A DNA stretch of 64,000 nucleotides, taken from IMG/VR virus record IMGVR_UViG_2585427708_000005. One strand, 5' to 3'. Shown here piece after piece: positions 14,350 to 51,485 of the stretch. The notes below the pieces were generated by a model that worked only from the letters and a program-made list of their open reading frames with translations, did no database searches and was not told where the DNA came from. A program made the translations under genes and the position numbers. Numbering within the stretch: position 1 is the stretch's first letter; every line of letters begins with the position of its first letter. The DNA comes from a virus. Its lineage: Duplodnaviria > Heunggongvirae > Uroviricota > Caudoviricetes.

Positions 14350-14527
14350 GCATCCCCCTTACCCATGCGCGACGATGCCGCCAAAAGTGATAGAGAACAG
14401 CCAGAAATAGATCGCGGCCATAATGATTTTGAATGCCGTGTTCATATTTTCAGCTCCTGTGATTGATTGGATACATGCCGCGCCTTGCGGCATGTTTTTA
14501 TTTTTACTTTCTCTGTTTTAAAAATCA

Positions 14528-14544
14528 AGATTTATTAGAGCAAT
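14528..14544 (-). promoter_or_regulatory. C1 operator-like site (16/17)
   Basis: agatttattagagcaat upstream of 13768..14349. Confidence 0.6.
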
Positions 14545-15050
14545 CATTGTTGATGAAGAAGCGCATTTTCATACTCCCTGACCATTAACGTAAGTACGCC
14601 GTGACTCCTGAAAACACGCGCCACTTCAATCTTATCTTCCAGCGCGAACGCAATTTTACTTAGACCAATTTTCTTCAGGAGATCAATCTTTGCTGGACCG
14701 TCATTTCTGTCATCGGTGGCAGGACGCATAGATAGCAAAGGCTCAGCCCCATTTGTTACGTGCTTACGCAACCAGGCTCGTGTTTTATCCCTGGCTATCT
14801 CACAGCGCCCGGTTACAAACCAGAGGGTGTAAATGCCGGACAACTGGCGCACCATATCAATAACTGGAGTGATGGGAGCATCAGTGTCACAGGCAAGGTT
14901 AAACTCGTTCCAGTGCTCTGTTAATGCACCTTTGCCAGGTGGTGGAAGTAAATGCAGCCTGTCTTCCGTTGCCTCTGATATCGTCCCATCAATATCTACT
15001 ATGACGATGTACGGACGTTCCTGGTGTGCGTGTTTATTGAAAATACTCAA
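14544..15050 (-). CDS. HAD-superfamily phosphatase-like protein
   Basis: 168 aa; N-terminal DxDGT motif (IVIVDIDGTISE). Confidence 0.6.
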   Translation of the reverse strand: MSIFNKHAHQERPYIVIVDIDGTISEATEDRLHLLPPPGKGALTEHWNEFNLACDTDAPITPVIDMVRQLSGIYTLWFVTGRCEIARDKTRAWLRKHVTNGAEPLLSMRPATDDRNDGPAKIDLLKKIGLSKIAFALEDKIEVARVFRSHGVLTLMVREYENALLHQQ

Positions 15051-15122
15051 ATACCCTCCTCATTGGACGAAAAAAATGCTGGTGGGCGCACTCCACCAGC
15101 ATTAAAGGTGACACTGTAACTA

Positions 15123-16385
15123 TCAGCGAACGTAAATAGTGCCGCCGTTCTCTTTTTCCCATGCATCGCTACGTGCATAGCAAACATCGAGAAGTCTTCT
15201 TGCCGCAGTTTCCTCTAAACCCAATTCGACAACCAACTGCTCATGACGGCGGGTAACCACATCAAACAGGGTATGCAGCCCTTTAGTTGCCAGATCATCA
15301 ATGAATTCCGGTTCGAACGGCAGCTCTGCATCTGCTAACATAACCTCTTGCGCCCACTCAACTCGACGGACCAGTTCCGGGCGGCGGCTTTCCATCTCTT
15401 TACAGATCAATTCATGGAAGAACTCTACCCAACCTTCCGGCTGGAACTCGCGGAAAATTGCCAACGGCTGGAAGTTTGGCATCAACCATTCGTTGATTCG
15501 GATATCAATGGCATAGCCCATGTCGCAGCAGAACTGATAAGCAAAGTCCAGCTTAGAAACGATATAAGGACGCTCGTTATTGAACTCTTTAGGCGATGAG
15601 ATCCCATAAGCCAGGAGGCGCGGGAAGAAGGAGATTTGCCCTAACGTCGGATGAAGTTTGCTTGCAGGGAAACGGCGCTCAGTAATGCCATACATTTCCT
15701 TCTTGAGCGTCGCAAATTTGGCATTCTCATTAACCAGCGCGGTAACCTCTGCTTTTTTATTAGCAAATGCCACGCGCGCTTCGCTTGCATCTTTAATAGT
15801 TTTTTTGAGCTGTTGGTTAAGGTCGGCGACCTGCTTACGCAGTTCCTGTCGCTCGCTTTTAGCTTTGTTATAGCGTTTCTCAAGGTTAAAAGGATCAAGT
15901 TTCATGATCTCTTTATATTGAGATTTTAGCGTTGAAATCTGTGAGTTCCGCAGTTCAACCATCGCGGTCATTTCATTGAGTTTTGTTTCCAGCTCAATGC
16001 TTATACGTTCGGCATTATCAGCACGCTGGTTGGCGTCATGCGTCGCATCTTCGATCGCGTCCTGTTGCTGGCGTTTCAAATGTTCAATTTCCAGCTGAAG
16101 CTCTTCAATTTCTTTACCCTTCAGACCGAGATCCAACTGCATATTTTCAGCTGCATCTACCAGGGAGTTATGGCTATCAGCTTCTGCGTTATAAACATCA
16201 ATAAGCTGTGCGTGAAGCATCTCCGCTGACTGAACCGCATTATCAAAAAAACGTGCTGTGAGGTCATCACAACTAACGCGGCGTTGCGCGGCCCGGATGT
16301 TCTGGATAATGGCCGGGATACCGGCATTCAGGACATCAGGGATAGATACATTTTCGATTGATTGGTTTTGTGCTGAAGTGCTCAT
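15123..16385 (-). CDS. Hypothetical coiled-coil protein with conserved C-terminal domain
   Basis: 420 aa; long coiled-coil N-half; first gene after the dual operator region. Confidence 0.55.
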   Translation of the reverse strand: MSTSAQNQSIENVSIPDVLNAGIPAIIQNIRAAQRRVSCDDLTARFFDNAVQSAEMLHAQLIDVYNAEADSHNSLVDAAENMQLDLGLKGKEIEELQLEIEHLKRQQQDAIEDATHDANQRADNAERISIELETKLNEMTAMVELRNSQISTLKSQYKEIMKLDPFNLEKRYNKAKSERQELRKQVADLNQQLKKTIKDASEARVAFANKKAEVTALVNENAKFATLKKEMYGITERRFPASKLHPTLGQISFFPRLLAYGISSPKEFNNERPYIVSKLDFAYQFCCDMGYAIDIRINEWLMPNFQPLAIFREFQPEGWVEFFHELICKEMESRRPELVRRVEWAQEVMLADAELPFEPEFIDDLATKGLHTLFDVVTRRHEQLVVELGLEETAARRLLDVCYARSDAWEKENGGTIYVR

Positions 16386-16386
16386 T

Positions 16387-16605
16387 TCAAAGTTCCGTAT
16401 TAGCTTGTGCTTCGGTCATTTTTCCTAAGTATGAAGGAGGAAGGACTACGCAATTTGTATCCAGTCCCTCACCTATGGCAGCCTGTAAAATTCTGGCTAA
16501 GGTGAGTCTCTTGTTGCGATACCTGGTGATGACATGCCTGATACCGCCGGTCGGCGTAACAAAGGCGATCAGCCAGTAGTGATATTTCCGTCGGAATGGC
16601 CACAT
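16387..16605 (-). CDS. Small hypothetical protein (start uncertain; the longer ORF overlaps operator sites)
   Basis: The track ORF 16387..16662 spans the operators; an internal Met gives about 72 aa. Confidence 0.25.
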   Translation of the reverse strand: MWPFRRKYHYWLIAFVTPTGGIRHVITRYRNKRLTLARILQAAIGEGLDTNCVVLPPSYLGKMTEAQANTEL

Positions 16606-16619
16606 AGTGCACCTTATAG

Positions 16620-16636
16620 ATTGCTCTAATAAAAAA
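16620..16636 (+). promoter_or_regulatory. C1 operator-like site (14/17, forward)
   Basis: attgctctaataaaaaa; paired with the opposed site at 16669. Confidence 0.5.
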
Positions 16637-16668
16637 CGTGATGAGTGTACATCACGTTTCAAAAATAT

Positions 16669-16685
16669 GGAATTATTAGAGCAAT
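16669..16685 (-). promoter_or_regulatory. C1 operator-like site (14/17, reverse)
   Basis: ggaattattagagcaat; the two sites flank the palindrome acgtgatgagtgtacatcacgt. Confidence 0.5.
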
Positions 16686-16686
16686 A

Positions 16687-17388
16687 TTATTCTGATTCCT
16701 GCTCAAAAAACGAGCTAATGAGGGGAATCCAATCCTCTGACACTTCGCGAGGTCGCGGTTTGCCGTGGAAAAAAATTATTCGGCAGTCCTTTGGTAATGC
16801 CCCATTCCCCCTGGAGTAACGCGCGCTCGCATATTTTGAACCTGGTTCCACAACATCGGCCTTGTAACTTACAAACCATCCTGGATACAGATCCTGAAAT
16901 GCTGGTGTATCATCGCCCATAACCTTCCGTAAGAACCCCTGATCACCCCAGCACTCAGTAGTGACACAACGAGAAATCCAACCTTCCGGATCTTGCCAGA
17001 ATGAACTCCAGATATGCGCTTTTACACTATTTGGTATCCACAGGGCACCGCTGCCACGATATTGTGGATGGTAAAAATCCCTAAGCATGGTGAAGCTGGT
17101 TGGTGGATCCTCAAGGATTGGGCGTATATCACCGGCAATAACCGTGTCCAAATCCAGATAGAACAGATCATCGGTTATATCCGGTCGGAACAACTCGATT
17201 TTCGCCCACCAGCCACGGCACTTTTGCCACTGGTTGATCAATGGGACAACTTTGACGCCAGGTACATGTAAACGCTTCAGGTCTGTCAGGCAAATAATTT
17301 CATAGCCTTTTGGCAGTTGATTAACCAGCCACTGCACATCGGAAGCGTTATAGTCACCACCAGAGCGAAAAACTAAAGCAATCTTCAT
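16687..17388 (-). CDS. Putative GT-A-like glycosyltransferase or nucleotide-sugar-binding protein
   Basis: 233 aa; Rossmann-like N-terminus ([11 protein letters not shown]) and a DxD-like YLDLD motif; weak assignment. Confidence 0.35.
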
Positions 17389-18077
17389 GCTGCACCATCA
17401 CCTTTCACTTTCATCAATGTCAGGTTTCCGCAAAATACGGCACCAGTGTCGATATACTGCTGATTCCAGAATGTCTTCGGGCTTTTCACCGGAGTGTGAC
17501 CAAAGATAAAACGATCTGCGCCCGAAATTTCGCCACCAATATCATCCATCGAATCACTGATACGCTCGCGCGCCCAGACAACGTTGAAAAGCGGCACCTC
17601 CTTACCGAATTGGTATTCATTATCCGGATAGTCGGCATGGGCTATAACGATAGTTTCTTGCCCGGTGTTCAACTCAATGATATAGGGCAGACGCTTTACC
17701 AGCTCCACCAGCGCCCAGGCTAATATTTCCTGATCAGTGTCCAGCATGAAGAACCATTGTCCGCCATTCATTAGCCAGTTATTCACGTTGCCATCTGGAC
17801 TTAACGCATCAATCATCAGCCGCTCATGGTTCCCCATCACTGCCCTGAACCAGGGCATCTGCAATAGTTCCAGACATTCGACATTTTCAGTACCGCGATC
17901 GATAAGGTCGCCGACCGATATCAGTAAATCCTGCGCCTGGTCAAAATCCACACGATGGAGTTCGGACATCAGTCTGGTGTAGCAACCATGCAGATCACCA
18001 ACAACCCAGACATTCCTGTATTTGGTACCGTCGATACGGTGATAAATTGTTGGTGCCATCATGTATTCTTCAGCCAT
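17385..18077 (-). CDS. ppp: Ser/Thr protein phosphatase (lambda PPase-like metallophosphatase)
   Basis: GDLHG, GDLIDRG and GNHE motifs; strong similarity to lambda phosphatase; true start probably the internal Met near 18059. Confidence 0.85.
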
Positions 18078-50520: not shown

Positions 50521-51321
50521 TTAGCGCGTTGCCGCGACAGGTACCAGCACACCAGCATCAAGCAATCGCTTCATCAGCCACTGCTGACCTTTGCCGGTTA
50601 TACGAGTCGTGAAAGAAATCCTGCTTCCATTGCTTGTATCGATCACGGTTTCTTTAAGGGTGAAATACCCACGGGATATGTATTCTTGTTTGGGGACGTT
50701 CCTGCGTTCACCGGTTGCGATCAGAATTCCGTTATCACGCAACCAGGTGAAGAGATAGTTTTGGCCCAGGCCGAGCACTTTGGCATAGTTGCCGATTAGA
50801 ACCCCGCTGGCGGTAGCAACGCGTTCGGCGAATTCGACTTTAGGTGCATCCATCAGCATTTTTTGCTCCAGCCGTTGCTTTTGCTCTGCCAGGTCAGCAG
50901 CCAAACGGAGAGCTTCTGGGAGGCTCTTCGGAATAGCAGGTTGTAATCTTCCGGCTCGATAGTCGATAAATGTCTGGTTTACCTTCAGCCGAAACGCGGG
51001 AGAAATCCAGCCTGCGTACTCCACTGCGAGCAATTCATGGGCAAAAGTGCCGCCGCCACGGCCTTCGAACGAAACTATGCAATTCTGCATAGTTTCTTTT
51101 TCAAGCTCTTCGATGAGCTGTTTGGCTGACAGCGTTCTTAGCCATTGAGCTGGCGCTTTATGGGCACCGAGTCCGCTCGCTCTGTGTAGAGCATTAAGGT
51201 TGTAACGGCCAGCGCGGTCGGTCGTAATTTCAACACCACAAATAACAGGCAGAGTGGTTGAAGGATCGACATTTTGATGAAGGTTTGATATATTCATATC
51301 CGCATTGAATGTTTGTTGCAT
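50521..51321 (-). CDS. kilA: KilA (KilA-N domain with Bro/antirepressor-type C-terminal domain)
   Basis: 266 aa; C-terminal half paralogous to the C-terminus of the adjacent antirepressor; operator upstream. Confidence 0.8.
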   Translation of the reverse strand: MQQTFNADMNISNLHQNVDPSTTLPVICGVEITTDRAGRYNLNALHRASGLGAHKAPAQWLRTLSAKQLIEELEKETMQNCIVSFEGRGGGTFAHELLAVEYAGWISPAFRLKVNQTFIDYRAGRLQPAIPKSLPEALRLAADLAEQKQRLEQKMLMDAPKVEFAERVATASGVLIGNYAKVLGLGQNYLFTWLRDNGILIATGERRNVPKQEYISRGYFTLKETVIDTSNGSRISFTTRITGKGQQWLMKRLLDAGVLVPVAATR

Positions 51322-51407: not shown

Positions 51408-51485
51408 TTTTTCTAACTCGATCCAGATCGGGTTGGACGATCTGCTCAGAAACCTGCCAGTTTGCTGGCAGGTTTTTTTCTTTTG

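Follow-up and report, generated by a model that had tools for sequence, protein, structure and literature searches.

Putative overlap of a terminator and a promoter between two C1 operators in the pmgR-pmgS region of a P1-like phage-plasmid

The main finding of this study is that a 66-bp element of a P1-like phage-plasmid, which coincides with the known C1-controlled pmgR-pmgS region, probably represents a compact overlap of a transcription terminator and a promoter placed between two sites for the C1 repressor. A more detailed version of this reading, which we put forward tentatively, packs four functions into the 66 bp. The inverted repeat in the element would be a terminator hairpin, its loop would be the -10 hexamer of the pmgR promoter (the PpmgR predicted in GenBank being misplaced), and the U-tract would double as the tail of one operator, while the 49-bp spacing of the operators would let two C1 monomers clamp one RNA-polymerase footprint.

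The window, by which we mean the whole 64-kb stretch of viral DNA that was analysed (IMG/VR record IMGVR_UViG_2585427708_000005), is by its sequence a P1-like phage-plasmid. Its positions 15000-18000 are 98.7-99.1% identical to bacteriophages P1, P7, SJ46 and RCS47, and the 201 bases at 16560-16760 are 100% identical to the E. coli P1-like plasmid NZ_CP027590.1. On the minus strand the genes follow in the order ppp, pmgQ, pmgR, pmgS and pap, and the 66-bp element is packed into the gap of ~80 nt between pmgQ and pmgR (Table 1). An earlier note on this DNA had placed the element upstream of a 420-aa coiled-coil gene; this gene, pmgS, does lie downstream, but the next gene is pmgR and pmgS comes second. 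A search of genome contigs with PmgS returned near-identical loci only. The c1 gene itself lies outside the window, which starts in the terminase region. In P1 the gene before c1 is pacB. The order differs in NZ_CP027590.1, in which icd-like and KilAC-domain antirepressor genes lie directly between the terminase region and c1 (69500-73500; L143). This plasmid, which is also identical to the window in PmgS, encodes a "phage repressor protein C1." As for the genes downstream of the element, pmgR is essential and is needed to complete the heads, its deletion leading to unjoined heads and tails (PMC9024508).

Table 1. Coordinates of the features discussed, as positions in the window
Feature	Position	Strand	Remarks
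Strong terminator-like hairpin TGCTGGTGGAGTGCGCCCACCAGCA followed by T7	15077..15101	-	right after pmgS; d = 31.8, dG -15.6
pmgS	15123..16385	-	420 aa, coiled-coil region; second gene of the pmgR-pmgS unit
pmgR	16387..16605	-	72 aa; ATG at 16605
Shine-Dalgarno AAGGTG of pmgR	16610..16615	-	read from the sequence
OpmgRb (former Op86b), C1 operator ATTGCTCTAATAAAAAA	16620..16636	+	consensus match and P1 annotation (L001 4621-4637)
T-tract TTTTTTATT	16628..16636	-	immediately 3' of the stem; overlaps the OpmgRb tail
Interrupted inverted repeat/hairpin	16634..16659	-	5' arm 16659..16650, loop 16649..16644, 3' arm 16643..16634
Hairpin loop TACACT, candidate -10 (TAnnnT)	16644..16649	-	T37, A38 and T42 invariant
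PpmgR -10 (GenBank-predicted)	16656..16661	-	TAAAAC in P1, TGAAAC here; L001 4657-4662
Candidate -35 for the loop -10	16666..16672	-	TCCATA with a 16-bp spacer or TTCCAT with 17 bp
OpmgRa (former Op86a), C1 operator ATTGCTCTAATAATTCC	16669..16685	-	consensus match and P1 annotation (L001 4670-4686)
PpmgR -35 TTGCTC (GenBank-predicted)	16679..16684	-	inside OpmgRa; L001 4680-4685
pmgQ	16687..17388	-	233 aa; final gene of the upstream operon (pmgN-pmgQ)

The two sites that bound the element are, judged by position and sequence, the annotated C1 operators of pmgR-pmgS, and such sites occur far above chance in the window. The operators to which C1 binds number 22, are dispersed and share the asymmetric 17-bp consensus ATTGCTCTAATAAATTT (PMC8546580). 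The window holds 11 matches to this consensus, where 0.37 are expected, and eight exact copies of the operator core TTGNNCTAATAA, where 0.14 are expected. ATTGCTCTAATAAAAAA and ATTGCTCTAATAATTCC, which had been recognised in the earlier note as one operator-like site in each orientation, match the consensus at 14 of 17 positions each, with a perfect 13-nt core and all three mismatches in the AT-rich tail. OpmgRa begins 1 base after the pmgQ stop codon. Together the sites form an inverted repeat whose perfect 13-nt arms are separated by 40 nt, and they are opposed at 49 bp centre to centre. OpmgRb is the only one of the 11 matches whose tail is AAAAAA rather than AAATTT, a deviation that is kept in every lineage we compared. 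At these exact bases the P1 record AF234172 carries a "monovalent C1-controlled operator OpmgRb; former Op86b," and its note on OpmgRa reads "former Op86a; controls expression of pmgR and pmgS"; P7 (AF503408) is annotated with both protein-binding features as well. C1 binding at both sites is taken here from the GenBank annotation. The idea of C1-type operators at a repressed promoter agrees with the P1 annotation in both position and sequence, and since this pair (Op86a/b) has stood in the P1 reference annotation since 2004, the finding in that form was already known.

Compared with OpmgRa, OpmgRb and PpmgR of P1 (AF234172/NC_005856), the locus, the orientation and the sequence are the same, with one base different in 66 bp. 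Subtracting a window position from 98837 gives the corresponding position in AF234172. This base is 16660, C for T on the plus strand, which changes the annotated PpmgR -10 from TAAAAC to TGAAAC (G for A at its second base) and is carried by only 4 of ~125 loci. The P1 record also differs from our reading, as it has no terminator feature at this place and sets the -10 on the 5' arm of the hairpin, not in the loop.

Between the operators, acgtgatgagtgtacatcacgt is present exactly at 16636-16657. It had been described as a perfect 22-bp palindrome, which turns out to be inexact: the string has two 8-nt arms separated by AGTGTA, 6 nt that lack self-complementarity, and is thus an interrupted inverted repeat. 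Its full arms are 10 nt long and perfect (AAACGTGATG and CATCACGTTT at 16634-16643 and 16650-16659, with a 6-nt spacer). Under the criteria used (arms of at least 10 nt, loops of 3-10 nt), it is one of seven distinct perfect inverted repeats in 64 kb; these make 15 entries, against a shuffle mean of 0.7, a site being listed once per qualifying loop size. Other perfect repeats with arms of at least 10 nt lie at 38915-38941, 42279-42307, 25132-25160, 51071-51096 and 51450-51475, and several of them score as terminators; those at 38915-38941 (GACTACAGTCAACTTTTGACTGTAGTC) and 42279-42307 do not. As RNA, the hairpin between the operators folds at -13.4 kcal/mol (z = -5), and a search of Rfam with 16300-17000 (E <= 1) gave no match. 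A CRP-like site was also considered and rejected. The core of a CRP site is TGTGA-N6-TCACA; the sequence here reads CGTGA-N10-TCACG and is not conserved among relatives.

What the inverted repeat does was approached by comparing 13 diverged lineages. The relatives collected were Cronobacter phage JK004, the Salmonella plasmid pCVMN1543, contigs encoding PmgR homologues with 72-84% identity, and many P1-type contigs. The PmgR family is narrow, with 18 clusters, and when viral and metagenome collections were scanned by pattern for non-P1 variants, one new lineage only was gained. Phage D6 is uninformative for the comparison because it has no pmgQ, pmgR or pmgS at this position. One further locus, L130 (GCA_045575315.1), was left out of the alignment. 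At ~1400-1500 its downstream operator is longer by one base (TTATTAGAAACAAT) and its neighbouring genes are fragmented, oddities that are probably due to assembly error or decay.

The relatives compared are all laid out alike on the pmgR-sense strand. The pmgQ homologue's stop codon is followed by an operator and, after 13 nt, by the hairpin; then come a T-tract, which is the second operator's tail in reverse complement, a ribosome-binding site and the pmgR ATG. Both operators and their exact spacing are kept in the 13 lineages, and columns 1-66 of the alignment contain no indel, whereas the 20 nt just downstream do, a pattern that fits several overlapping constraints. The strict conservation of both sites and of their spacing would also fit joint action of OpmgRa and OpmgRb. 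Within this rigid frame the sequence of the stem varies while its pairing is kept. The arms are CGTGATG/CATCACG in the P1 clade and CATGGTG/CACCATG, CGTGGTG/CACCACG or GCATGGTG/CGCCATGC in others, and in L135 the common stem is replaced by a shifted one (CGGCATG/CATGCCG) that is again followed by T6. In the 13-sequence alignment 96.5% of cells are standard pairs, and three stem pairs are changed on both sides (8 cells). No shuffle of 500 reached the observed pairing or covariation score, although these controls overstate significance because the lineages, few in number, are related. The cells that are not Watson-Crick pairs are 20 G.U against 1 A.C when read on the pmgR-sense strand, and the sole A.C lies in the register-shifted L135. 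A palindrome acting as DNA predicts no such bias, and a hairpin in minus-strand RNA does, so the G.U excess points to RNA. Rare single-base stem variants within the P1 clade give G.U ~5 times on the sense strand and 3 times on the other, and the bias therefore rests mainly on differences between clades.

This comparison bears on two readings in which the repeat would work as DNA. In one, suggested by the earlier note, the two C1 sites facing each other would form a DNA loop or cooperate directly, and a second, dimeric regulator would use the palindrome as its operator. In its favour, neither the operators nor their spacing of 49 bp vary among the diverged lineages, and C1-mediated looping is reported at the c1 operators. 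A second regulator would nonetheless face half-sites that are not conserved (CGTGATG, CATGGTG, CGTGGTG and the shifted CGGCATG) while their pairing is, strand-biased G.U pairs that point to RNA, and a 64-kb window with no other convincing copy, the one other match being at chance level, with 3 mismatches and inside pmgS. A loop of 49 bp between monomers, for its part, is physically demanding. We consider this combined reading quite improbable, all the more so as a T-tract following a hairpin after a stop codon is the anatomy of a terminator. The other reading is a DNA-level structure, either a cruciform, which might for example expose the -10 in single-stranded form, or a palindrome due to chance. 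Perfect 10-nt arms around a -10-like loop speak for such a structure. Its pairing would be needed on both strands, however, and no bias would be expected, against the 20 to 1 observed; a stem of 10 bp is also short for cruciform extrusion. Chance is excluded by the compensatory conservation and by the rarity of such repeats. Taken together, a DNA-level structure or a chance palindrome is scarcely credible.

We therefore return to RNA. The palindrome is most likely the stem-loop of an intrinsic terminator that ends the upstream pmgN-pmgQ operon, as far as sequence comparison can tell. The hairpin begins 27 nt past the pmgQ stop codon and runs directly into TTTTTTATT, and in all 13 lineages the T-tract is TTTTTTATT or CTTTTTATT. 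By a d'Aubenton-Carafa-type score the minus-strand reading reaches d = +10.7, compared with -33 for the plus strand, and in 13/13 lineages the sense strand scores above zero (1.0 to 28.4) and the antisense strand below it. The hairpin is a modest one, with a 7-bp core, -8.5 kcal/mol and 4 G-C pairs, and it ranks ~9th of ~13 distinct sites with d > 0 on both strands of the 64 kb. A stricter promoter and terminator scan called nothing in the window and called the equivalent hairpins in L135 and L139; it missed the one in the window because it extends the stem into the T-run, whereas our own scan tried shorter stems. The P1 record contains no terminator feature anywhere in the ~14 kb inspected, and its silence at the hairpin consequently means nothing. 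Like known rho-independent terminators, the element has a stem-loop, a T-tract that follows directly, a place just after a stop codon and compensatory pairing; it differs from them in that its stem is relatively A/U-rich and only moderately stable, its T-tract doubles as an operator tail and its loop resembles a -10. The same stretch thus seems to serve both as the tail of OpmgRb and as the U-tract.

Two other terminator-like hairpins lie in the neighbourhood. The hairpin right after pmgS (Table 1), which is not among the features of AF234172, is the probable end of the pmgR-pmgS unit. At 14474-14494 on the plus strand there is another (d = 38.7), in the leader of the minus-strand gene pmgT and near the C1 operator OpmgT (14528-14544); it could stop antisense transcription.

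The second part of the argument concerns the promoter of pmgR, for which AF234172 annotates a "predicted sigma 70 promoter PpmgR." Its -10 occupies columns 25-30 of the alignment, where the last base is C in all lineages and the critical second position is G in about half of them, including the window; relatives have TGCGGC (L135), TGAGGC (L136) or TGAAGC. Scored with a simple frequency matrix, the annotated promoter falls from +4.0 to -5.6 across lineages, with -1.8 in the window. The loop of the hairpin, in contrast, is TACACT, TATCAT or TATTAT, its first T, its A and its final T being invariant while the other three positions vary, and it is the only column of the element with TAnnnT in 13/13 lineages. 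In most relatives the candidate -35 for this loop is TTTACT, and the combination TTTACT-16-TATTAT or TATCAT (9/12) is called independently by the promoter scan in L134, L135, L136 and L139. The loop promoter is top-scoring in 11 of the 13 lineages. Its -35 is degenerate in P1 and in the window, where TCCATA-16-TACACT matches at 7/12, scores ~4-5 and is not called by the scan. In P1 it practically equals the annotated PpmgR (4.01 vs 4.04), and in the window it beats it. These comparisons suggest that the -10 of the pmgR promoter is most likely the hairpin loop, and that the -10 predicted in GenBank is probably misplaced.

It may still be that PpmgR is correct as annotated, in which case transcripts would start in the loop, the TAnnnT there would be a coincidence, and the hairpin might nevertheless be the pmgQ terminator. 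That promoter was annotated by the authors of the P1 genome, it ties with the loop promoter in P1, and a -35 inside an operator is also the annotated design of P2pmgT. Its -10 is poorly kept, as described above for the window, L135, L136 and others, with scores from -1.8 to -5.6, and we therefore find this alternative rather unlikely and prefer the loop as the -10.

Other promoters were sought around the element. No Lpa-dependent late promoter is annotated, and no match was seen to the -22 boxes of LPhot and LPpmgL, whose spacing is itself inconsistent. A plus-strand promoter using TTGCTC of OpmgRb as its -35 was rejected, the hexamer 17 bp downstream being AGTGTA (1/6). In the diverged relatives L135 (779-808) and L139 (1435-1464) the scan further calls an antisense promoter-like sequence, ATGATA-18-TAAAAT (9/12), that points into the pmgQ homologue and whose -35 is the hairpin loop read on the complementary strand; it is absent from P1 and from the window.

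Published transcription data agree with a promoter at this place. Per-gene log fold changes from RNA-seq of P1vir (PMC8201110 Table S1; Table 2), which do not locate transcript ends, place pmgR and pmgS 2-3 log2 units above pmgQ at 10 min in both hosts (PMC8201110), and this step shows a separate early promoter between pmgQ and pmgR. At the level of genes, these data show that pmgR-pmgS is an early transcription unit separate from pmgQ (PMC8201110). At 30 min there is a drop from pmgQ to pmgR that is compatible with partial termination and is ambiguous; wild-type pmgS values show no such drop (PMC8201110). CRISPRi essentiality data (PMC10695390) cannot show that pmgR is independent of upstream genes, since the knock-down of pmgR itself was missed.

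Table 2. Log fold changes of genes around the element in P1vir RNA-seq (PMC8201110)
Host, time	pmgO	pmgP	ppp	pmgQ	pmgR	pmgS
wild type, 10 min	7.39	6.99	6.95	7.05	9.02	9.99
dksA, 10 min	6.63	6.52	6.09	6.23	9.00	9.09
wild type, 30 min	11.77	11.32	11.49	11.66	10.81	11.70
dksA, 30 min	11.03	11.19	11.01	11.23	10.44	10.59

An early promoter between the genes could also lie upstream of the hairpin, so that the hairpin would act within the pmgR-pmgS mRNA as a leader attenuator, a 5' stabiliser or an RNase III site. A TAATTT in the tail of OpmgRa corresponds to TAnnnT in 11/13 lineages, and in RNA that reads through, pairing of the two operators could produce a long composite hairpin (-27.3 kcal/mol). 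P1 and the window, however, lack the final T in that hexamer, and there is no acceptable -35 upstream of it, which makes a leader attenuator unlikely. Transcripts of this kind would moreover end at a hairpin with T6 behind it, and the annotation of the stretch examined lists no antitermination factor. The operator arms also lack the covariation expected of RNA pairs (L129 and L136, for example, have mismatches). A role in the leader is accordingly very improbable in our view, and the terminator of the upstream operon remains the preferred function of the hairpin.

If the hairpin and the loop promoter are what they appear to be, the element would work as follows. Transcripts of pmgN-pmgQ arriving on the minus strand would be terminated by the hairpin and a U-tract encoded by the unusual A6 tail of OpmgRb. 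The sigma-70 promoter of pmgR would overlap this terminator, with its -10 most likely in the loop and its -35 next to OpmgRa, and initiation would occur near the invariant G16637 at the 3' foot of the stem, whereas the GenBank PpmgR would start in the loop. Under either promoter model, RNA that starts here lacks the 5' arm and so cannot form the terminator; it would run through pmgR-pmgS to the strong terminator at 15101-15077. In the lysogen, one C1 monomer would sit on each flank, OpmgRa covering ~-48 to -32 and OpmgRb ~+2 to +18, and with both sites inside the footprint of RNA polymerase the promoter would be shut, to fire early once C1 is inactivated. As a speculation, a start at G16637 would give GUUUUUU as the first nucleotides (16628-16637, minus strand), which might allow reiterative transcription by slippage.

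A comparable use of paired operators is found at Obanab of P1 (the former Op72a/b, which controls ban), where two opposed 17-bp C1 sites likewise lie at one sigma-70 promoter. The difference is that the Obanab sites overlap, being 11 bp apart centre to centre, while here the centres are separated by 49 bp, with the hairpin and the core promoter in between. The window itself contains, at 30744-30771, two operator matches that overlap in opposite orientation, one of which fits the consensus perfectly, in the layout of the P1 ban operator Op72a/b. Beyond phages, promoter-terminator coupling is reported to be widespread in bacteria in a 2026 preprint (bioRxiv 10.64898/2026.08.19.745784), and the arrangement described there resembles the present one in that termination and the next initiation take place in the same short DNA.

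What is possibly new here is modest and consists of the comparative evidence that the palindrome is a terminator and that the -10 of PpmgR is probably misplaced. The palindrome thereby gains a concrete and testable role as a terminator instead of that of a second operator. The predicted pmgR promoter, for its part, may be misplaced by ~12 bp, which matters for engineering P1 or for mapping its early transcription. The region is a clear example of the tight overlap of terminator, promoter and repressor sites in a phage and, if our reading is true, it would be a compact and conserved phage example of promoter-terminator coupling under the control of a repressor.
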